Position numbers and translations under genes: made by a program. Under the pieces are notes generated by a model. It saw only the letters and a program-made list of their open reading frames with translations, did not search any database and was not told the origin of the DNA. Positions 11,442-36,007 of a stretch of 36,007 nt of DNA are shown here, one piece after another. Each line of letters begins with the position of its first letter. Position 1 is the stretch's first letter. This DNA comes from a virus. The DNA lies in UHGV virus genome UHGV-0135626, one strand, 5' to 3'.

Positions 11442-12362
11442 ATGCCAGAACAAAAGATGAAGATTACGGAAGAGGCATTTTCGGATTTTACGGGGCATAT
11501 GTGCCGTGCCGGATTTACCAATTCTATCTCCGATGAACCTTTAACCGAGCGACAACAAAGTCAGCTATCTGCTTGTTTGCAGGCGGTTCCCTTCTCCCAA
11601 TCCGTAAACATAACCCCGGCTTCACCGTCAGTTTTGGTTGGGAAAACTGTTCAACTTAGTGCAGGTATTACTATGGGTAAGAGTGCCAGTTCATTCACCT
11701 GGAAGTCAGCCAATGATCAAATTGCAACCGTCAACGGCACTGGATTAGTAACTGGCGTAGCACCAGGCAAAGTGAAAATTACCGCAACTGATCAGGAAAC
11801 CCAGCTTTCCGCGTCAGTGGAAGTCACCGTAAATCCGGTAGCCGTTCAATCCGTAACGGTAACGCCAGACTCAACCTCTGTTGAGAAAGGGAAATCAGTC
11901 AGTCTGAAAGCGAATGTTCAGCCGTCAAATGCGACGAATAAGGCAGTTACCTGGTCTTCCAAAAATGAAGACAAGGCAACGGTAGACCAGAGCGGGAACG
12001 TTACTGGTGTAGAAGTTGGCACTGCGACGATTGAGATCGTTTCCCAAGATGGCAGCAAAAAGGCAACTGCAACGGTGGAAGTAACTGCGCCTGTTGTGGC
12101 TGTTACTGGTGTCGAAATCGACCCAAATAGCACAACCGTTGAGGCAAACAAAACTGTTCAGCTGACCGCAAATGTCGAGCCGGCAGGAGCAACAAATAAA
12201 ACCGTTACTTGGGAATCCAAAAATACCGAGTTTGCAACGGTGGACAGCGAAACCGGTGTTGTAACTGGTGTTGCGGCTGGCACTGCCACAATCGAGGTTA
12301 CTACCCAAGATGGTAGCCACAAAGCGACAGCGACTGTAGAAGTTACTGTCGCACAGGAATAA
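11442..12362 (+). CDS. Ig-like (Big_2-type) repeat protein, probable head decoration protein
   Basis: 306 aa with three tandem Ig-like units of about 80 aa, each with a KAVTWxSKN...ATVDxxGxVTGV...GTATIE pattern. SD AGGAG 6 nt upstream. Confidence 0.7.
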   Translation: MPEQKMKITEEAFSDFTGHMCRAGFTNSISDEPLTERQQSQLSACLQAVPFSQSVNITPASPSVLVGKTVQLSAGITMGKSASSFTWKSANDQIATVNGTGLVTGVAPGKVKITATDQETQLSASVEVTVNPVAVQSVTVTPDSTSVEKGKSVSLKANVQPSNATNKAVTWSSKNEDKATVDQSGNVTGVEVGTATIEIVSQDGSKKATATVEVTAPVVAVTGVEIDPNSTTVEANKTVQLTANVEPAGATNKTVTWESKNTEFATVDSETGVVTGVAAGTATIEVTTQDGSHKATATVEVTVAQE

Positions 12363-27766: not shown

Positions 27767-27859
27767 TTGTGGAAAAAAATAATCATTTCTGTAAAAATAG
27801 GTAGGTACTAACTTAATGGTGGGCATGGAACGCCCACCATATCTAGGAGCAAAGGATAA

Positions 27860-30205
27860 ATGTGGTACAGGGAAGGTACAATAAATCTCACTAAAGGAAA
27901 TAAAACTGTAGTGGGAACAGGCACAGCCTGGGGAGTGACGGCGAACGGCGTCCTTCCAGGTATGATATTGATTGGCCCCGATAATAAGTTATATGAAATA
28001 AAATCAATCGAGAGTGACACTTCGTTAACTCTTGTTGAAGCCTACGGTGGTAGCACCCAAACAAATGTCCCGTGCAGAATAATTACGACCTATGAAGGTG
28101 ATTTAACCCAATTTAGTGCTCGTTTTACTGCGCTTATGTCTCGCATGTCAGCCGATTCAAAAATGATGCGTAGTTGGTTGACTGCCGTGGATGAAATAAC
28201 AATTGAGCGTGAAGATGGCACGGAATTAACCGTAAAATCCCTTACGCAGATCGTTAATGAGCACAATGAGAACCTAGAATGGTATAAAGAAAATACTCCC
28301 ATAATTAACACCGCTGCACAAAAAGCTAAAGAGGCGGCAGCGAGCGCAACAGCGGCCAAAAAATCAGAAACTAACTCAAAAGCGAGTGAGACAGCTTCAA
28401 AGACTAGCGAAACTAATGCGAAAAATAGCGAGGTAGCTGCAAAATCGAGTCAGAGTGCTGCCGCAAACTCCGCTACCGCAGCAAAAAACAGCCAGGATGC
28501 AGCAGCCGAAAGCGAGAGTGCTGCAGCTGGTTCTGCGACTTCAGCAGCTGGATCAGCAACTGCTGCGGCTAACAGCCAGAAAGCTGCGAAGACGAGTGAA
28601 ACTAACGCAAAGTCCAGCCAGACGGCAGCAAAGACCAGCGAAACGAATGCCAAAGCCAGCGAAACTGCGGCGAAAAGCAGTCAGGATGCAGCAGCCGAAA
28701 GCGAGAGTGCTGCAGCCGGTTCTGCAACAGCGGCAGCTAATAGCCAAAAAGCTGCAAAAACCAGTGAAACTAACGCAAAGGCGAGCGAAACAAAAGCAGC
28801 AGCCAGCGAGACAGAAGCAACGTCAGCCGCAACAAGAGCAGAGAATGCAGCCAGGATTGCAGAAGATGCCGCTGATCCTGCTTCTGTCCCTCCGCTTCCT
28901 GATATCTGGCTACCCTTGAATGATTCTCTGGAAGCGATAACAGGGTATGCGCCGGGGTATAAAACAATAACCATCGGCAGCGATGAAATCACTGTGCCAG
29001 TTAATGGCATATGCCAATTTAGCCGGGCTTCATCTGCAACGTATATTGATAAGTCCGGGCATATTACCGTGGCAGGGAATAACGTTCCTCGTTTTGAAAA
29101 ATATGGTTTGCTGATAGAGAATCAGCGAACAAACATGTTCGTAAATAGTTTTAATCCTGATGCGTGGAATAAAAGCGGTGGTATATCTGTAACATCATCA
29201 ACAGATGAATTTGAGTTTAAATATGGACGTTTCACAGTAGGAAGCGACATAGCAGGAACGACAACAGGGAGAAATATATGCACAGTTGCTGGTAATAGAG
29301 GCATAGATGTGACTGGCGATGATCAGTACAGTAAAGGTCCGTATGTTACCGCGTCGTTCAGGGTAAGAAGTGATCTCAATGTTCGCGCACGTATCCGTTT
29401 TGAACGGTATAACTCGGAAGGATACACTTTCCTTTGTGACGCCTATTTGTCATTACAGACCCATGAACTACAAATTACGGGTGATAATGCCCAGCTATTA
29501 ACAGCAAACTTTGAAATCGATCCAGGTAGTGGATGGATATATTTTCAGGCAACCCTGAAATGTCTGCCAGAATGGGGAATGGTTGGTACGCAGTTGCAAA
29601 TTGCAGCCGACAGAGCTGTGGGGTCTTTTGCAACAGGTGACTGGATAGAAGTAACCACCCCGCAATTTGAGTATGGTGCTTGTGCAACTTCCTTTATCAT
29701 AACGACAACAGAGCCAGCTACTCGTGCATCAGATTTATGTAAATTTCCGCTGATGAAAAATATGTATACCATGCCTTTTACGTTCATGGTGGAAGTCCAT
29801 AAAAACTGGTTTATTTCTCATAATGCTGCACCGCGAGTAATTGATACAGAAAACCATCAGTCAGGTGCTCCATTTATCATGGGATTTGGCTCTTCTGGAA
29901 CTATCAGTCAGGACGGTTATCCCTATTGTGATATAGGCGGGGCTAACCGACGTGTATATGAGTCATGCGGAGTAAGAGATCTCGTTATGGGATTCAGGGT
30001 TAAGGCTGACGGCATGACATGCTCATTTGCAAATAAGCATATAAGCACAGAAACAAAAACAGTATGGAAATATATTCGTGAAGCTGCTGTGATTCGTATC
30101 GGGGGACAAACGACGACAGGATTACGACACCTTAATGGACATATAAAAAACCTCCGTTTCTGGAACAGAGCATTGTCAGATACGCAGCTTAAGGAATACG
30201 TATAA
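27860..30205 (+). CDS. Tail fibre protein with Ala/Ser/Glu/Thr-rich repeat shaft
   Basis: 781 aa: conserved N-terminus, low-complexity repeat region, then a Gly/Tyr/Trp-rich C-terminal domain with lower GC, as expected for a receptor-binding domain. Confidence 0.75.
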   Translation: MWYREGTINLTKGNKTVVGTGTAWGVTANGVLPGMILIGPDNKLYEIKSIESDTSLTLVEAYGGSTQTNVPCRIITTYEGDLTQFSARFTALMSRMSADSKMMRSWLTAVDEITIEREDGTELTVKSLTQIVNEHNENLEWYKENTPIINTAAQKAKEAAASATAAKKSETNSKASETASKTSETNAKNSEVAAKSSQSAAANSATAAKNSQDAAAESESAAAGSATSAAGSATAAANSQKAAKTSETNAKSSQTAAKTSETNAKASETAAKSSQDAAAESESAAAGSATAAANSQKAAKTSETNAKASETKAAASETEATSAATRAENAARIAEDAADPASVPPLPDIWLPLNDSLEAITGYAPGYKTITIGSDEITVPVNGICQFSRASSATYIDKSGHITVAGNNVPRFEKYGLLIENQRTNMFVNSFNPDAWNKSGGISVTSSTDEFEFKYGRFTVGSDIAGTTTGRNICTVAGNRGIDVTGDDQYSKGPYVTASFRVRSDLNVRARIRFERYNSEGYTFLCDAYLSLQTHELQITGDNAQLLTANFEIDPGSGWIYFQATLKCLPEWGMVGTQLQIAADRAVGSFATGDWIEVTTPQFEYGACATSFIITTTEPATRASDLCKFPLMKNMYTMPFTFMVEVHKNWFISHNAAPRVIDTENHQSGAPFIMGFGSSGTISQDGYPYCDIGGANRRVYESCGVRDLVMGFRVKADGMTCSFANKHISTETKTVWKYIREAAVIRIGGQTTTGLRHLNGHIKNLRFWNRALSDTQLKEYV
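28330..28870 (+). repeat. Imperfect tandem DNA repeats encoding the fibre shaft
   Basis: Near-identical segments recur about 190 bp apart, e.g. CAGGATGCAGCAGCCGAAAGCGAGAGTGCTGCAGC at 28492 and 28682, and AGTGAAACTAACGCAAAG at about 28588 and 28759. Confidence 0.7.
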
Positions 30206-30474
30206 TGCGGGATATAACATTACGATTCGATAACAGAGAACAGTTTAACGCAATTGTATATGACAGTGGCCTGTTCAGTCTTGAAGAAGAAAATGGGGTT
30301 CTTGTTGATGTTATTGGCTGCATTATTGATTACGAGGAGCCAGAAAACGAAAGATGTACAGGCATTGATCGCGGTGGTTTTTTCGTAAACATGAGGATTG
30401 TTGATAGCAGTAAAAACATATCTTCTTTAATGCCTTTCATTACGACAGATCAGCATGTAAGGACATGGGCTTAA
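30205..30474 (+). CDS. Hypothetical protein in the fibre cassette (possible fibre assembly or adaptor protein)
   Basis: 89-aa ORF with TAATG overlap with the fibre gene stop and SD AAGGAA. AT-rich; no motif recognised. Confidence 0.45.
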   Translation: MRDITLRFDNREQFNAIVYDSGLFSLEEENGVLVDVIGCIIDYEEPENERCTGIDRGGFFVNMRIVDSSKNISSLMPFITTDQHVRTWA

Positions 30475-30486
30475 TGGAGTAAGACA

Positions 30487-31527
30487 ATGGTTACAAAAAC
30501 AGTAATTCCTGATGACATCAAAACGCTAAAATCGGATGTTAGTAAATTAAAAACCGATCAAGGAAACTACGCAACAAAATCTTATGTAGACAATAAAACA
30601 ACATGGAATGGTTATTGCAATTTAATCTATGATCAAAAAACATTGCCAACAACTGGAACTATATTCAGCGGTAAGCTGCATTTGTCAAATAAGACTGGTG
30701 AAACGGAAAACGCTTATAGTGACATATATACCAGAAAAAATATTGATGGTACTAAAGATACAATGACGAGGATCGTCACACATAACGGGACAAAAGGTAT
30801 CTTTTGGGACTTTAGTGATCTTAACGGAGGAACTTTAATTTTTCCAGGCAGTGGTGGTTATCTTAAGATGGGGAACTGCCTCATGTCGTATGGTGTGCGG
30901 GGAAGTAACGCGCTTATTAAGTTTGATTACACCGACACATTACAGATCAAATATGCCAATCATGGGTCAACCATGACATTAAACACACAGGGAACCGCTT
31001 ATGCTGGTGTTACTGCTCAATTGTGGGGCAACTCCAGTCGTCCAGTTGTTTATGAAATTAGGGATGATGGCGGGCTTTTTTTGTTTTATGCACAAAGGAA
31101 CCCAGATAAAACCTATCAGCTTGAGATAAACGGGCCATGCAAGGCTACATCATTCGACCAGGTGTCGGACAGAGATCTTAAAGAAAACATTCAGGTTATT
31201 GATAATGCCACTGAGCGCATCAGATTAATGAATGGGTATACTTACCGTCTCAAGTCTAATGGTATGCCTTATGCTGGCGTTATTGCGCAAGAGGCACTTA
31301 ATGCAATCCCTGAATCAGTTGGTAGCACAATAAAGTACAAGAGCGGGGACAATGGGTCTGATGGAGAAGAGGGAGAAAGATACTATACCGTCGATTACTC
31401 AGGCGTAACGGGTTTGCTTGTTCAGGTAGCCAGAGAGTCAGACGACAGGATAACAGCACTGGAAGAAGAAAACGCAGAATTAAGACAAAGATTATCTGCA
31501 ATTGAGGCGGCGCTTGCGTCTAAATAA
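30487..31527 (+). CDS. Tail fibre protein with C-terminal intramolecular chaperone (peptidase S74-type) domain
   Basis: 346 aa, SD GGAG 7 nt upstream. Residues 227-234 SDRDLKEN match the autoproteolysis site of endosialidase/T5-type fibre chaperone domains; a terminal helical segment (EEENAELRQRLSAIEAALASK) follows. Confidence 0.75.
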   Translation: MVTKTVIPDDIKTLKSDVSKLKTDQGNYATKSYVDNKTTWNGYCNLIYDQKTLPTTGTIFSGKLHLSNKTGETENAYSDIYTRKNIDGTKDTMTRIVTHNGTKGIFWDFSDLNGGTLIFPGSGGYLKMGNCLMSYGVRGSNALIKFDYTDTLQIKYANHGSTMTLNTQGTAYAGVTAQLWGNSSRPVVYEIRDDGGLFLFYAQRNPDKTYQLEINGPCKATSFDQVSDRDLKENIQVIDNATERIRLMNGYTYRLKSNGMPYAGVIAQEALNAIPESVGSTIKYKSGDNGSDGEEGERYYTVDYSGVTGLLVQVARESDDRITALEEENAELRQRLSAIEAALASK

Positions 31528-31533
31528 TATCAA

Positions 31534-31556
31534 GGGGCCGAGCGCCCCGTTTTATT
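31534..31556 (+). terminator. Rho-independent terminator after the fibre gene
   Basis: GGGGC-cgagc-GCCCC followed by GTTTTATT. Confidence 0.65.
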
Positions 31557-31569
31557 GGGTAGGATGAAA

Positions 31570-31854
31570 ATGGATATAACACCTTTCCTTCATGCGCTTT
31601 GTGCTGTGGCTGCGCAGCTACTGATTGGTCTTTTTACCGGGAACTGGGTTTACGGGGCGATAGCCGGTTGTACGTTCTTCATTGCGCGTGAACACACCCA
31701 GGCAGAATATCGCTGGATTGAAATGTTCGGGCATGGCAAGCGTATGAATATGCCGTGGTGGGGCGGTTTTGATCCGCGCGCTTGGGATGTAGCAAGCCTG
31801 ATGGATTTTGCGATTCCACTTTTAGCGTGCACATTATTATATATTTTTATTTAA
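31570..31854 (+). CDS. Small membrane protein with two predicted transmembrane helices (holin, moron or exclusion protein)
   Basis: About 94 aa from ATG 31570 (SD AGGA 5 nt upstream); hydrophobic segments AVAAQLLIGLFTGNWVYGAIAGCTFFIA and ASLMDFAIPLLACTLLYIFI. Lies between a terminator and an AT-rich promoter region. Confidence 0.45.
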   Translation: MDITPFLHALCAVAAQLLIGLFTGNWVYGAIAGCTFFIAREHTQAEYRWIEMFGHGKRMNMPWWGGFDPRAWDVASLMDFAIPLLACTLLYIFI

Positions 31855-31976: not shown

Positions 31977-32035
31977 AAAAAGATAAAATGTGATATAAAT
32001 CCGCCATCCCGATTTGACTTTTCATGGAGGAAAAT

Positions 32036-32359
32036 ATGTCGAACGAGATGGCGGGCGTAACAACAGAGCAAGTTGAGCGCATTGCCGCGATCGTTGCTCG
32101 GGAGGTTGTCGGCAAATTAGGTAAAGAGCTACGTGAAGAAATTGGCCAGGAGGTCAACGATCAGCTGAAAACCTACTTTGGTGATATGACCCCGGCGCAA
32201 CATAGTATTCAACACTCCAACCTGGACAAACTCCTTAACCGGTTAGATTCCATCTCCAGTGGGTTCTTTGGCGGCATTGTTTCTAAAATAACGTCGTTCA
32301 TTATTACCGCACTGCTTTTGGGGTTAGCCGCGTATGGCGTGAAAAATGGACTGCAATAA
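32036..32359 (+). CDS. Small protein with one C-terminal transmembrane helix (holin or antiholin candidate)
   Basis: Start at ATG 32036 with SD GGAGG 5 nt upstream (track ORF starts 32024). C-terminal hydrophobic segment ITSFIITALLLGLAAYGV; directly upstream of the putative endolysin. Confidence 0.45.
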   Translation: MSNEMAGVTTEQVERIAAIVAREVVGKLGKELREEIGQEVNDQLKTYFGDMTPAQHSIQHSNLDKLLNRLDSISSGFFGGIVSKITSFIITALLLGLAAYGVKNGLQ

Positions 32360-32372
32360 CAGGAGATCAAGG

Positions 32373-33065
32373 ATGAAGACTCCGAGAGGCATTCGTAACA
32401 ATAACCCCGGTAATCTTGATAAAGGATCGCCGTGGCAAGGTCTGGTTGCTAATCCAGACGAACCCCGCTTTTGCACGTTTAAAGACCCTGTTTGGGGGAT
32501 TCGTGCGCTGGCGGTGACTCTAATTACCTACCACGACAAACGTCGCGCAAAAGACGGCTCAAGTATCGATACCATTCGTGAAGTTATTGAACGCTGGGCA
32601 CCGCCGAACGAAAATAACACTGACGCCTATATTAATGAGGTGTCCAAAGCAGTTGGTGTAACCGCAGACATGATTATCGATCTGCATGATTACGACATCC
32701 TTCGACCTTTAGTTGAGGCAATCATTCGCCACGAGAATGGCCGAGGCCCGCTAAAAACGCTGAACACCTGGTATGCGGCAGAAGTTATTGAGGAAGGTCT
32801 GCGTCGAGCTGGCGTCGTTAAGCCGGTGAAAACGGTGAAGGCTGTTCCTGTAACGAAAGAAACCGCAGGCGCAACTGTTACAGCAGGTATTGGTCTGGCG
32901 CAGCTTGCCGATGTTATGCCGCAGATTTCCGCTGCTATGGATAAAGCACAAGGTCATATCTCTAGCGGGGATACAGTACGCATCATCTTCGGTATTGCCA
33001 CTATTGTTGTGGCAGGATTCATTGCCTGGTCGCAGGTAAGAAAACACCAGAAAGGGATGGTCTAA
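32373..33065 (+). CDS. Putative endolysin / cell-wall hydrolase with C-terminal transmembrane anchor
   Basis: Start at ATG 32373 (MKTPRGIRNNNPGNL) with SD AGGAG 7 nt upstream. Function inferred from position directly before Rz/Rz1; C-terminal hydrophobic segment IIFGIATIVVAGFIAW. No catalytic motif confidently recognised. Confidence 0.4.
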   Translation: MKTPRGIRNNNPGNLDKGSPWQGLVANPDEPRFCTFKDPVWGIRALAVTLITYHDKRRAKDGSSIDTIREVIERWAPPNENNTDAYINEVSKAVGVTADMIIDLHDYDILRPLVEAIIRHENGRGPLKTLNTWYAAEVIEEGLRRAGVVKPVKTVKAVPVTKETAGATVTAGIGLAQLADVMPQISAAMDKAQGHISSGDTVRIIFGIATIVVAGFIAWSQVRKHQKGMV

Positions 33066-33066
33066 T

Positions 33067-33318
33067 ATGCTAGGCAGCCTGATGACAAAGCTAAAAGTTG
33101 CTTTGATTATGCTGGCTGCCGTTCTTTTCGTTCTTGTCGGCGCTTACACGATGGGCGGAAATGCGGCGCGACGAGCAATGGAAGAGAAGGCAAAACAGGA
33201 AGACAGAAAACGACTTCAAAACACAGTGAAAGTGGTGAATGAGACGAGCAGTAAAATACGTCAGAAAGATGCTTCTGCCGTTCATCGTGAGTTGTATGAT
33301 AAGTGGGTGCGTCATTAA
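33067..33318 (+). CDS. Rz: Inner-membrane spanin (Rz-like)
   Basis: 83 aa with N-terminal transmembrane segment (LKVALIMLAAVLFVLVGAY) and a charged helical periplasmic part; a lipoprotein gene is embedded in the +1 frame. Confidence 0.65.
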   Translation: MLGSLMTKLKVALIMLAAVLFVLVGAYTMGGNAARRAMEEKAKQEDRKRLQNTVKVVNETSSKIRQKDASAVHRELYDKWVRH

Positions 33319-33486: not shown

Positions 33487-34008
33487 TTATTCTTCGAACA
33501 ATTTTTCGATAGATTTTGTAGGATAGAACAAAGAACGCTCGTTGTTACCAACCAGCTGGATAAAGCCTAAACTTTTATAAAACGCCTTGGCTTTGTCATT
33601 TAACGCCTCAACGAAAAGTCCATGAATGCCTACAGCAAGAGATGCATTGTACACAACGCGCATTGCATGTGTTACAAGCATTGAGCCAAATCCTTGACCT
33701 TGAAGGGACTTGTCCAAAGCCAGCCTACCCAAAGTAACACTTGGAACATTCCGATAAGGAACCTTCTTTTGTTTGCTTCTTGAAGGTAAGGACTCCTTTT
33801 CAAAACAACTACCTGACAAAGTGTAATATCCTAACACTTTTGGCCTTTCTTCTTGAGTGCAAAGCACATAAGCACGAAGAATTTTTCCCTCATGCTGCCT
33901 TTTTAAGTGGTTGGCTAAAAAGGCGTTTAGTGACTCTTCGCCGCAATCAAAACCGTTTAGATCATAATCTTTCTCTCCAGAGAAAATCTCTATCGTTGTA
34001 TTGCTCAC
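33487..34008 (-). CDS. GNAT-family acetyltransferase toxin of a type II toxin-antitoxin pair (TacT/AtaT/KacT-like)
   Basis: 173 aa; GNAT motifs (QGQGFGSMLVTHAM acyl-CoA loop, AKAFYKSLGF). Immediately downstream of, and co-oriented with, a DUF1778-type antitoxin gene. Confidence 0.8.
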   Translation of the reverse strand: MSNTTIEIFSGEKDYDLNGFDCGEESLNAFLANHLKRQHEGKILRAYVLCTQEERPKVLGYYTLSGSCFEKESLPSRSKQKKVPYRNVPSVTLGRLALDKSLQGQGFGSMLVTHAMRVVYNASLAVGIHGLFVEALNDKAKAFYKSLGFIQLVGNNERSLFYPTKSIEKLFEE

Positions 34009-34015
34009 GAGTAAA

Positions 34016-34285
34016 CTACTCCATGCTTTTCAGACGATCAGCAGCTCGTTTCAGCTTGTCGTTCGGTGCCGGAGGATTGCTTATAGCGTCCATAACCAGA
34101 TTCCAGGATTCTTCATTCAGAACTAGTCTACGGTGTTGCTCTATAACTTTCACGGCACGTTCAGATGCACTGCTAACCATAAACTGAGTAATGCTCTGGT
34201 TAGACATTGCGGCAGCTTCCTCGATGATGCTTTTATCGTCATCGGTTAATCTCAAATCGATGCGCTGCTTTTTTAGTGCTGACAT
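34016..34285 (-). CDS. DUF1778-type (RHH) antitoxin, TacA/AtaR-like
   Basis: Start at ATG 34285 (MSALKKQRIDLRLTDDDKSIIEEAA), preceded by a perfect SD AGGAGG with 5-nt spacer, giving 89 aa. The track ORF extends to a TTG at 34324. Confidence 0.8.
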   Translation of the reverse strand: MSALKKQRIDLRLTDDDKSIIEEAAAMSNQSITQFMVSSASERAVKVIEQHRRLVLNEESWNLVMDAISNPPAPNDKLKRAADRLKSME

Positions 34286-34324
34286 GTATTCCTCCTGATG
34301 GCCGTGATGTAGGAAGGCCATCAA

Positions 34325-34603
34325 TCTCCTCTGTTCAAACTGAGTTTTCGACTCAAAAATTACTTTAAAAGGCTATAGCCCATTACGTGTGCATTATCAA
34401 ATTGTGTACGGCATATCACCGTACTTGTAATATAGAGGTCATTGTTACTTTTTTCAACAGACAAATACAAGCTATGATTGCCAATTGTTAACCACAACCT
34501 ACCATTTAACCTTTACACCGCAGCCGTAGGCATTTAGGCTATATCACATATAAGAAAACAAGTTGTTTCAGACGATAATTATATACGCAAAGGGAACTCT
34601 CCA
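34325..34603. promoter_or_regulatory. Divergent control region between the toxin-antitoxin operon and parA; candidate operators or centromere
   Basis: 279-bp non-coding gap holding palindrome GGCTATAGCC (34371-34380), inverted repeat GTACGG-N7-CCGTAC (34406-34424) and near-palindrome AAACAAgTTGTTT (34556-34568) about 35 bp before parA. Confidence 0.45.
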
Positions 34604-35272
34604 ATGACCAAGATCTTTGTGGTTGGCGGCACAAAGGGCGGGCCTGGCAAATCCACCGTTGCCCAGCAAATTGCCGTTTGCCTGAAAGTCAAAAAGAAGA
34701 AGAAGGTTTATATTACCGATATAGATATTCAGCGCACGACAACGAGCTGGTGTGAAGACCGTCGACAGAACGAAGACCTTGAGCTGATTCCTTTTGCATA
34801 CGTTCAGGATGACATCATTAAGCACCTAAAATCGCTTCAGGGTAGAGCTGAGTTTGTAGTGGTAGATGCTGGTGGCTTCGACTCCGAAATTCAGCGACAA
34901 GCGATGCTGATGGCTGACGTTATCATTATCCCGCTGCGTCCTAAGCGTCGTGATTTGAAATCTTTACGTGACATCGATCCTATTATCGACAATGTTCGCA
35001 ATGTAAACGATAAAGTGAAGGTCCGCGCGGTCATGAACCAGTGCCCGGCTTTGCCATCACAAGTGTCTCGCATTCTGGCGGCTAAAGAGATTGTTGAGAC
35101 GTTTGGAATCGAGTCTGCGCCAGTCAATCTATATAACCGCAACGTCTATGATGATGCGGAAGAGTCTGGTCGTTCTATCTTTGAAATGACCGGTAGCGAG
35201 CGCGACAAAAAGGCGGAAGCCGAGTTTGAAGAATTTGTAGATTATCTGTTGAGTCTGGAGGAAGAAGAATAA
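34604..35272 (+). CDS. parA: ParA-family partition ATPase (small type Ib form)
   Basis: 222 aa with deviant Walker A GGTKGGPGKST at the N-terminus and no N-terminal HTH extension. SD AAAGGGAA; TAATG overlap with the next gene. Confidence 0.85.
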   Translation: MTKIFVVGGTKGGPGKSTVAQQIAVCLKVKKKKKVYITDIDIQRTTTSWCEDRRQNEDLELIPFAYVQDDIIKHLKSLQGRAEFVVVDAGGFDSEIQRQAMLMADVIIIPLRPKRRDLKSLRDIDPIIDNVRNVNDKVKVRAVMNQCPALPSQVSRILAAKEIVETFGIESAPVNLYNRNVYDDAEESGRSIFEMTGSERDKKAEAEFEEFVDYLLSLEEEE

Positions 35273-35631
35273 TGTCCATGAAAATGGGTGACCTAGCAAA
35301 GCGCAAAGAGCCTGATGCACCGGCTAAGAACACAACTCCTTTGCGCCAACCAGTCAGACCACAAGGACGCCCGACTCGTGGCAAAGAGAAAATTAAAAGC
35401 CGCACTATGTCACTGGAAGACGAATACTTCGAGCTTCTGGAAATGATGAAGTTTATCCCTCGTTTCGAGAAGTTCACCCGCTCTGATGTGATTCGTGCTG
35501 CTATTTTCCATCTGGCAGAGAAGTCACCGCAGGAAATCGAGGACATCGTAAAGCTGAACGAGGCGATCACAGCTGCCGATGTCACGATGCGTACCGATGA
35601 AATTAAACGCGAGTTGATGAAGAAAGGTTAA
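35272..35631 (+). CDS. Small RHH-type centromere-binding partition protein (ParG-like)
   Basis: 119 aa, translationally coupled to parA. Basic, probably disordered N-terminus and a C-terminal ribbon-helix-helix-like region. Confidence 0.65.
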   Translation: MSMKMGDLAKRKEPDAPAKNTTPLRQPVRPQGRPTRGKEKIKSRTMSLEDEYFELLEMMKFIPRFEKFTRSDVIRAAIFHLAEKSPQEIEDIVKLNEAITAADVTMRTDEIKRELMKKG

Positions 35632-35632
35632 T

Positions 35633-35661
35633 AATGTGGGCTGTCTAGCCCACATTATTTT
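35633..35661 (+). terminator. Rho-independent terminator after the partition operon
   Basis: AATGTGGGCT-gtct-AGCCCACATT (10-bp stem) followed by ATTTTAATT. Confidence 0.7.
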
Positions 35662-35682
35662 AATTAAAGTGGAGTGATAATT

Positions 35683-36007
35683 ATGCATTCGTTAGTATTT
35701 GCATTTAAAAACATACTCAAGAATGTTATAAACATACTAGGGATGTTAAATATTTTTTTGTCTGTGAGGGTGAGGAGAAAAGATATAAAAGATAAATTAA
35801 AGGAACTTAACAAAGAAAAAGAACAATTAAAAAGCGAAGAAATTATTATTGATTTATACAAGAAAAAACTCGCATCTAGCAAGGGGAAAGCTAATAATAA
35901 AATCAAAGGAAAAATAATTCACTATATTATTGCTAGAGAGTTGGGGAATGATCCTGATAATGAAGATTTGCGACATAATCTTTTTACAAAGATAAAAGAA
36001 TCAGAAG
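35683..36007 (+). CDS. Partial CDS (5' end) of an AT-rich gene: N-terminal hydrophobic segment then Lys/Glu-rich helical region
   Basis: Open frame from ATG 35683 to the window end (at least 108 codons, no stop), SD GGAG 8 nt upstream. Not in the ORF track because it is truncated. GC content far below the window average. Confidence 0.5.
   Translation, partial: MHSLVFAFKNILKNVINILGMLNIFLSVRVRRKDIKDKLKELNKEKEQLKSEEIIIDLYKKKLASSKGKANNKIKGKIIHYIIARELGNDPDNEDLRHNLFTKIKESE

Follow-up and report, generated by a model that had tools for sequence, protein, structure and literature searches.

Temperate phages and their satellites carry variable defence hotspots, of which those of P2 and P4 have been described (Rousset et al. 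2022, PMC9122126), and the same paper states that, in known systems, transmembrane effectors of abortive infection kill or arrest the infected cell. The RexA/RexB pair of lambda includes a small multi-pass membrane protein that is thought to depolarise the membrane, and the SieA and SieB proteins of P22 are prophage-encoded inner-membrane proteins that are expressed in the lysogen and exclude other phages. Here we describe a locus at the end of a stretch of viral DNA of 36,007 nucleotides (nt) (UHGV virus genome UHGV-0135626, hereafter the window), which is an SSU5-like phage-plasmid of Escherichia coli as judged by nucleotide similarity and by synteny over the tail fibre, lysis, partition and replication genes. 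A first-pass annotation, made from the sequence alone, had marked positions 35683–36007, beyond the partition operon, as an AT-rich partial gene and as candidate acquired cargo of the exclusion or defence type. This gene, designated A, and an overlapping partner gene, B, constitute a widespread and uncharacterised two-gene module, predicted to be membrane-embedded, in a defence hotspot of SSU5-like phage-plasmids.

The sharp drop to very low G+C content (GC) was correctly noted. The GC of the stretch is 0.274 compared with a window mean of 0.467 (standard deviation 0.043 for sliding windows of 325 nt), and this is the lowest-GC 325-nt segment, the next lowest non-overlapping one having 0.332; values as low are found at just 0.1% of start positions, all within 35611–35683, and the composition is not typical of the element. 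The frame starting at 35683 is open through all 108 codons to the window end, and in plasmids that are 98–99.9% identical over the stretch it runs to 250 codons and is an annotated coding sequence. Relative to a 73%-identical allele there are 22, 17 and 36 differences at codon positions 1, 2 and 3 respectively, and protein-level conservation across diverged alleles follows the plus-strand frame, a pattern that supports coding on this strand. The antisense open reading frame (ORF) of 80 amino acids (aa), which had been dismissed as spurious, is likewise treated here as a non-coding shadow of gene A, because its Phe/Ser/Leu-rich translation is that expected opposite a Lys/Glu-rich AT-rich gene and because conservation is in the sense frame. 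A non-coding AT-rich spacer with a chance open frame could be imagined, as the window cuts the frame and AT-rich DNA gives long ORFs on both strands, but this is refuted by the 250 codons in relatives, the retention of motifs down to about 20% identity, the third-position bias, and the Shine-Dalgarno sequence at the correct spacing, and its probability is negligible. Gene A is real, as had been proposed, accessory, and truncated by the end of the window.

Downstream sequence was obtained from relatives, which completed gene A and revealed its partner. Gene A encodes 250 aa in NZ_AP022089.1 (98.2% identical over the query) and CP090273.1 (99.9%), and in both its end overlaps by 8 nt with gene B, of 140 codons. 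The window itself ends inside A and gives residues 1–108, and the A core and gene B are read from these near-identical plasmids. The low-GC island covers both genes, extending for approximately 1.3 kb at 0.27–0.38 GC between flanks of 0.45–0.52.

The A protein begins with an amphipathic and moderately hydrophobic segment (residues 3–27), whose best 19-residue Kyte-Doolittle score of 1.46 falls below the transmembrane threshold of 1.6, followed by a charged, Lys/Glu-rich helical region (residues 30–145; 27 Lys plus Arg, 22 Asp plus Glu), in agreement with the hydrophobic segment and helical region described in the first-pass annotation. This N-terminal half is hypervariable. The conserved core consists of a juxtamembrane helix (ETVVNLFLLxEKxK), two adjacent hydrophobic helices at about residues 147–187 with Lys/Arg on both sides and a short LDLPA loop lacking Lys/Arg, and a C-terminal domain of about 60 aa with the motif YRVxKGYFGTxxxEAxQLxKFIxxNxDxxD...G..RKIL (for example, YRIRKGLFGTNRTEARELIDFIIKNSDNLDFTDSNGNLRRALLPE). 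In B, an N-terminal helix carrying a P-x-R-T motif is followed by two hydrophobic helices (about residues 26–45 and 58–76, with GxxxG in the first). The loop that separates these is acidic, Lys/Arg lie on their outer sides, and the C-terminal tail is helical. By the positive-inside rule, A and B are both predicted membrane hairpins whose N- and C-terminal parts are cytoplasmic, since Lys/Arg residues flank the hairpins and are absent from the short loops. A matches phrog_22270 (E = 2.9e-115, residues 12–250) and B matches phrog_17322 (E = 7.8e-69, residues 1–136), neither of which carries a functional annotation.

The pair occupies a precisely bounded slot between the parA/parB-like partition operon and the replication module. 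The partition region is 97–99.9% identical in nucleotide sequence to E. coli plasmids of 105–113 kb and 97–98% identical to phages Cyrano and CMS-2020a, and the partition operon is 86% identical to that of Salmonella phage SSU5. Beyond gene B, near-identical plasmids have a conserved gene of 246 aa (phrog_2500), then a DnaB-like helicase gene and then a primase gene. Homology among plasmids with differing cargo stops just after the stop codon of the parB-like gene, whose product is 96–99% identical among them, and this forms the left edge. On the right the slot ends at a conserved palindrome (CCTGCTTCTGTATATA...TATATACGGAAGCAGG) of about 55 nt, which has TTTT after it and precedes the phrog_2500 gene. 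This palindrome is common to all six compared plasmids of differing cargo (in locus L001, from NZ_AP022089.1, at approximately 11560–11617, past the window end) and could serve as a terminator, as a substrate for recombination or as a binding site for a protein. Fixed edges such as these could support exchange by homologous recombination.

Among 685 PLSDB plasmids matching the partition region, 73–74 encode the A–B pair and about 90% are without it. The A–B plasmids are all non-mobilisable, those listed are mostly 105–115 kb, and their hosts are Klebsiella, Escherichia, Enterobacter, Cronobacter, Citrobacter and Salmonella; the allele in the window is present in only six of them. Of 5,426 complete E. 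coli genomes, 263 have the parB-like gene, in every case on a plasmid, and 7 of the 263 have this allele, with other cargo in the slot of relatives, as expected if gene A is, as first suspected, an accessory gene. SSU5 carries the pair at the same position (SSU5_035 and SSU5_036), with an A protein 32% identical over the C-terminal 143 residues and a B protein 39% identical over 136 residues. Exchange of alleles on a constant backbone is evident from two E. coli plasmids, NZ_AP022089.1 and p009_B, in which ParA is 98% identical, the ParB-like protein 99%, and the phrog_2500 protein and the DnaB-like helicase each 100%, compared with 28% for A (11% in the N-terminal half, 45% in the core) and 40% for B. 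Over plasmid pairs the identities of the A core and B fall in step (81/76, 53/51, 45/40, 35/33, 34/38 and 29/22%), the pattern expected of interacting partners. We regard the identification of the gene and the cassette nature of A–B as close to certain. In pKPHS1 of K. pneumoniae HS11286 (locus L007, 2831–3597) A is split into ORFs of 61 aa and 144 aa, possibly by a frameshift, as a pseudogene, or through a sequencing error; its IMG/VR relatives are intact at 255 aa.

Different genes fill the slot in other members of the group. In pYLMB53a it holds a 255-aa GIY-YIG protein gene on the minus strand whose product matches PD-T4-3 (E = 1.3e-23), and in pUTAK-6-1 a DUF2971 protein gene (PDC-S31) together with one for a 390-aa protein matching PD-T7-5 (E = 4e-139). 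The DUF2971 protein gene (PDC-S31) stands alone in phage Cyrano and follows A–B in SSU5, and p09EL50 and pEC881_2 encode a 564-aa KAP-family NTPase (PDC-S49). PD-T4-3 and PD-T7-5 were reportedly found by Vassallo and colleagues in 2022 by functional selection in E. coli. Both have been reported in SSU5-group plasmids of E. coli and Shigella (2025 survey, 10.1101/2025.09.12.675607). From these two systems and the other genes matching PADLOC models in relatives, we conclude that the slot is a defence hotspot and that A–B is one alternative occupant. Literature searches found no paper describing this slot or hotspot in phage-plasmids, and none for the locus tags, protein accessions or PHROG numbers of A–B.

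Two of the occupants also have similar leader sequences. The hairpin preceding gene A (AATAATGTGGGCT-GTCT-AGCCCACATTATT) has a folding energy of -18.5 kcal/mol (z = -3.6), and 0 of 200 shuffled sequences fold as well. The strong terminator that had been claimed here is borne out as a strong hairpin, but its function as a terminator is only plausible, because the T-tract 3' of it is interrupted (TTAATTAAAG) and a consensus scanner calls a terminator on the minus strand only. The hairpin likely separates the partition operon from the cargo as a partial terminator or an attenuator. The good Shine-Dalgarno sequence stands, and the leader that contains it is kept in the pMS-37c allele and is similar to that of the KAP-NTPase cassette. 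In the latter comparison (p09EL50, locus L006, 7330–7383, with window positions 35630–35682) the similar leader consists of a hairpin of differing sequence, then AATTAA, then GGAxTGATAxTxATG, and the Megablast match reaches 16 nt into the coding region, which suggests that the cassettes are exchanged downstream of a common regulatory leader.

In view of its location, we propose that A–B is a lysogen-expressed, membrane-acting module for anti-phage defence or exclusion, with a probability of roughly one half. In the plasmid-prophage state, transcription from the partition promoter would read through into the pair, parA probably being the first gene of the operon from which A is expressed; read-through is probable in preference to a separate promoter, as in SSU5 and its Salmonella relative pSA20094620.2 gene A starts 1–4 nt after the parB-like gene with no hairpin between them. 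Translation of B would be coupled to that of A through their overlap, and the two proteins would form a hetero-oligomeric complex in the inner membrane that protects the lysogen against other phages or mobile elements. Protection could take either of two routes, collapse or permeabilisation of the membrane on infection (abortive infection), or a block to genome entry at the inner membrane (superinfection exclusion), and the hypervariable cytoplasmic N-terminal half of A would be the part responsible for specificity or sensing.

The company that A–B keeps in the slot admits another role, as an anti-defence or counter-defence factor that would help the phage-plasmid to establish itself where the host has certain immune systems. 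Besides defence genes, the variable hotspots of temperate phages contain anti-defence genes, and SSU5-group elements carry the Rad anti-retron gene; however, known anti-defence proteins are mostly small soluble inhibitors whereas A and B are predicted to be membrane-embedded, and the pair is also found at chromosomal sites adjoining defence genes. We consider this role highly improbable.

The family extends well beyond these phage-plasmids. A word-indexed protein search found about 20 clusters each for A and B, from Enterobacteriaceae only, and an exhaustive profile search with a 14-sequence alignment of A found 484 A representatives (of clusters at 50% identity) at E ≤ 1e-3, and 96 at E ≤ 1e-10, ranging from Enterobacteriaceae to cable bacteria and a cyanobacterium. 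The matches cover the A core, that is the juxtamembrane helix, the hairpin and the C-terminal domain, and homologues down to about 20% identity retain the A motifs. Among 80 diverse members R190 and E202 do not vary and G194, G197, A203 and F209 hardly do, and the corresponding C-terminal pattern, YR-x3-G-x2-G-x4-EA...F...D...G, is present in the full-length protein of the near-identical plasmids. In 34 of 34 loci with a complete A, including those of Vibrio, Providencia, Xanthomonas, Pseudoduganella and cable bacteria, a homologue of B lies directly 3' of A with an overlapping or abutting start; window-type B matches the partner in a Desulfobulbaceae genome with E = 3e-12 and that of Pseudoduganella with E = 2e-14. 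The unit sizes are about 180–300 aa for A and 133–150 aa for B. By its gene order A–B is a conserved bicistronic and obligate two-gene unit.

These loci also bear on the origin of the AT-rich stretch. The pair has a GC below that of its flanks in 34 of 34 loci, and together with the diverged copy at the same position in SSU5 this indicates that low GC characterises the family; on the same grounds a recent import from an AT-rich donor is rejected. The proposal of acquired cargo of the exclusion or defence type holds as regards a cargo slot that houses defence genes, with defence itself argued from location. A role as a partition accessory is also rejected, because integrated prophages and chromosomes that lack partition genes have the pair too.

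About a dozen independent contexts make up the neighbourhood evidence, and in many of them the genes around the pair are of prophage or defence type. In a Vibrio parahaemolyticus prophage the order is CI repressor, a 184-aa gene, A, B, a bPH-domain gene and a gene for a SIR2 protein that matches PADLOC SIR2 defence models, with putAbiC upstream. In a Providencia prophage the pair and a T5orf172 gene adjoin the tail-fibre genes, and in Xanthomonas campestris the pair lies between gpD and ogr of a P2-like prophage. One metagenomic contig has A–B adjoining PRTase-CE, reverse transcriptase and integrase genes; a second contig has A–B followed by T5orf172 and CHAT genes, with Tn3 and ParA genes nearby; and further contigs have A–B with MqsRA, or with a Tn3 transposase and an integrase. 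In Candidatus Electrothrix laxa the pair is situated between a putative VapBC-like pair, identified by eye, and a type IIG restriction-modification enzyme, and in two very divergent SSU5-like elements it again directly follows the partition operon.

Two side observations were made in these loci. A T5orf172-domain gene lies directly 3' of A–B in two unrelated contexts, encoding 166 aa in Providencia (L031–L033, 9242–9742) and 418 aa in the other (L043, 9432–10688). It may belong to the module as an optional third component, or its presence may be a chance effect of the company that mobile elements keep. Cable bacteria and other Desulfobulbaceae (Candidatus Electrothrix, Electronema) have an expanded A subfamily, with at least 13 representative clusters; these loci (L012–L019, L021) were found with a subfamily alignment, the A paralogues differ in their N-termini, and copies occur at no fewer than two conserved chromosomal sites, after ileS–lspA and proA–nadD. 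At one of the loci (L014) the longest ORF is 526 aa, possibly from an N-terminal extension or as an artefact of ORF calling.

A–B might instead be an addiction (post-segregational killing) or toxin-antitoxin-like module, in which the toxicity of one small membrane protein would be neutralised by the other and the pair would add to the stability that partition gives the phage-plasmid. Two short overlapping genes adjoin the partition operon, membrane hairpin proteins are plausible toxins, A and B co-vary as interacting partners do, and toxin-antitoxin loci are found near homologues (MqsRA, the putative Electrothrix pair, and the GNAT/DUF1778 pair in the window). The element already has that GNAT/DUF1778 pair just upstream, however, and A–B is also present in integrated prophages and chromosomes where plasmid addiction is irrelevant. 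In this slot the pair alternates with defence genes and not with toxin-antitoxin genes, and the extreme divergence of alleles on identical backbones fits an outside conflict better than self-stabilisation. We therefore view an addiction role as rather improbable, while noting that many toxin-antitoxin systems act in abortive infection, such that this explanation overlaps with the defence module proposed above.

Taking the distant members together with the phage-plasmids, a broader and more tentative proposal, for which we would not offer even odds, is that A–B is an undescribed and widespread membrane immunity system, made up of two proteins and complete in itself, that is carried by temperate phages, phage-plasmids and defence islands and in which the N-terminal half of A would sense the invader and a complex of the A core with B would permeabilise the membrane or block genome entry.

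A number of observations weigh against a defence function. No homology or experiment ties the pair to any function, and defence is argued from location and neighbours. Pfam and NCBIfam scans of A and B were empty, with no homology to toxin-antitoxin families; in PADLOC-DB v2.0.0, a release that dates from 2023, A gave only weak partial coiled-coil matches (PDC-M02B, E = 0.0012; LeoBC, E = 0.0088) and B only JetC (E = 0.01). The 80 diverse A members gave no consistent Pfam match, SLATT included, and a single one had a PADLOC match below E = 0.001; six distant B proteins matched nothing in Pfam or PADLOC. Neither the A nor the B alignment, used as a profile against the sequences of the PDB, had a match below E = 0.1. 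AlphaFold2 models from alignments of 14 and 21 sequences are all-helical and of low confidence, with predicted local distance difference test (pLDDT) values of 57 and 67, although A core residues 130–215 alone reached about 65–83, and Foldseek searches of BFVD with these low-confidence models gave no match at E ≤ 0.001. The profile searches and structure prediction suggested in the first pass have thus provided the 484 A representatives and the PHROG matches, but the models are poor and no functional family emerged. As for expression, scanning the window revealed no promoter-like site on the plus strand from parB to gene A, and the hairpin may keep expression of A low. Toxin-antitoxin genes are also located near homologues, and phage hotspots carry anti-defence and other moron genes as well.

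A further point on the same side comes from cable bacteria and their relatives, in which the pair is found between housekeeping genes (proA–nadD, ileS–lspA) with synteny kept across genera, and looks resident rather than mobile. This synteny, in a subfamily with at least 13 representative clusters, is consistent with a non-defensive membrane function expressed in the lysogen, such as control over the lysis or the induction timing of the element itself, lysogenic conversion by remodelling of the envelope, or a membrane role of the cell that mobile elements have borrowed, as are the prediction that both proteins are membrane-embedded and the finding of no enzymatic or nucleic-acid-binding domains in Pfam scans. 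Such a function seems unlikely to us, in that the phage-plasmid has a separate and complete lysis cassette and the pair is dispensable, being missing from about 90% of related plasmids, and is exchanged as a cassette for known defence genes.

The remaining features of this part of the window are collected in Table 1. The gene order, with the tail fibre gene followed by holin, endolysin and spanin genes, the GNAT/DUF1778 pair on the minus strand, the ParA and ParB/ParG-like genes, and the AT-rich gene, matches that of SSU5-like relatives.

Table 1. Features of the window from the lysis cassette to gene A
Feature	Position	Strand	Remarks
Lysis cassette (holin, endolysin, spanin)	32024–33318		Complete
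GNAT-family acetyltransferase toxin (173 aa) and DUF1778 antitoxin	33487–34324	-	Between lysis cassette and parA
ParA-type partition ATPase, 222 aa	34604–35272	+	Pfam MipZ, AAA_31, CbiA and ParA matches
ParB/ParG-like small partition protein, 119 aa	35272–35631	+	Conserved left flank of slot; phrog_5111, E = 4.5e-80
Hairpin, 13-bp stem and 4-nt loop	35630–35659	+	Overlaps parB-like stop codon; left edge of slot
Antisense ORF, 80 aa	35664–35906	-	Phe/Ser/Leu-rich translation
Shine-Dalgarno sequence, GGAG	35671–35674	+	8 nt upstream of gene A ATG at 35683; read from sequence
Gene A, codons 1–108 of 250 (5' 43%)	35683–36007	+	Hypervariable N-terminal half; open to window end

The position of the GNAT/DUF1778 pair is itself a second variable slot. 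It holds two unrelated hypothetical genes, of 127 aa and about 250 aa, in CP090273.1, p009_B and pSA20094620.2, a 402-aa gene annotated as a HEPN-domain protein in Cronobacter pCsa767a, and a 185-aa gene on the reverse strand in pJN2-26, so that variable slots lie on both sides of the partition operon. The window looks recombinant at 34300–36007: its toxin-antitoxin slot matches NZ_AP022089.1, and from 34497 on it is 99.9% identical to CP090273.1, AP023200 and AP023193, whose upstream slot genes differ. Elsewhere, a second low-GC stretch (0.365–0.39) on the minus strand at 144–1054 may also be accessory cargo; it has two ORFs, of 199 aa and 92 aa, and a 519-aa gene lies upstream of them. A local dip to 0.34 at 30401–30800 falls in the C-terminal part of a large tail protein gene, placed at approximately 27806–31834 by alignment with NZ_AP022089.1, which would fit a mosaic receptor-binding region.

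SSU5-like phage-plasmids are common in clinical E. coli, Shigella, Salmonella and Klebsiella, and the cargo slot defined here next to their partition operon, in which some relatives hold two experimentally validated defence systems, provides a list of candidates, none of which is as widespread as A–B or as poorly understood. If the pair does act in phage defence, a compact system of about 1.2 kb without an enzymatic domain would be added to the bacterial immune repertoire, two PHROG families and several hundred unannotated protein clusters would gain a function, and the large divergence of alleles on identical backbones would be a useful model for the evolution of specificity in membrane-based immunity.

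The slot resembles the P2 and P4 hotspots in having conserved flanks within a mobile element, mutually exclusive cargo, and several validated anti-phage systems, here PD-T4-3 and PD-T7-5, and in Xanthomonas A–B is itself at a moron position of a P2-like prophage. It differs in the type of element, SSU5-like phage-plasmids, and in its position, with the partition operon on one side and the genes for replication on the other, and A–B is not among the systems of PADLOC v2.0.0. Like RexA/RexB, A–B is a two-gene unit, of similar sizes (279 and 144 aa for Rex, 250 and 140 aa for A–B) and presumably expressed in the lysogen, and in Vibrio it adjoins a CI repressor gene as rexAB does in lambda. RexA is soluble, however, whereas A and B are both predicted membrane hairpins, and homology to Rex is rejected, with hhalign probabilities of 0.1–0.3% (A profile with RexA and RexB, B profile with RexB). 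A similar comparison can be made with the inner-membrane exclusion proteins SieA and SieB, which differ from the overlapping A–B pair in being single, separately encoded genes, and to which homology is also rejected (hhalign probabilities 0.3–1.9%). With the two-transmembrane (2TM) effectors of cyclic-oligonucleotide-based anti-phage signalling systems (CBASS) and Pycsar, and with SLATT domains, A–B has in common a two-helix membrane hairpin as its predicted business end, although it stands alone as a unit without a signalling enzyme (cyclase, TIR or SIR2). The closest analogues in function and layout would be lambda RexAB and the P22 Sie proteins and, more generally, two-helix membrane effectors.

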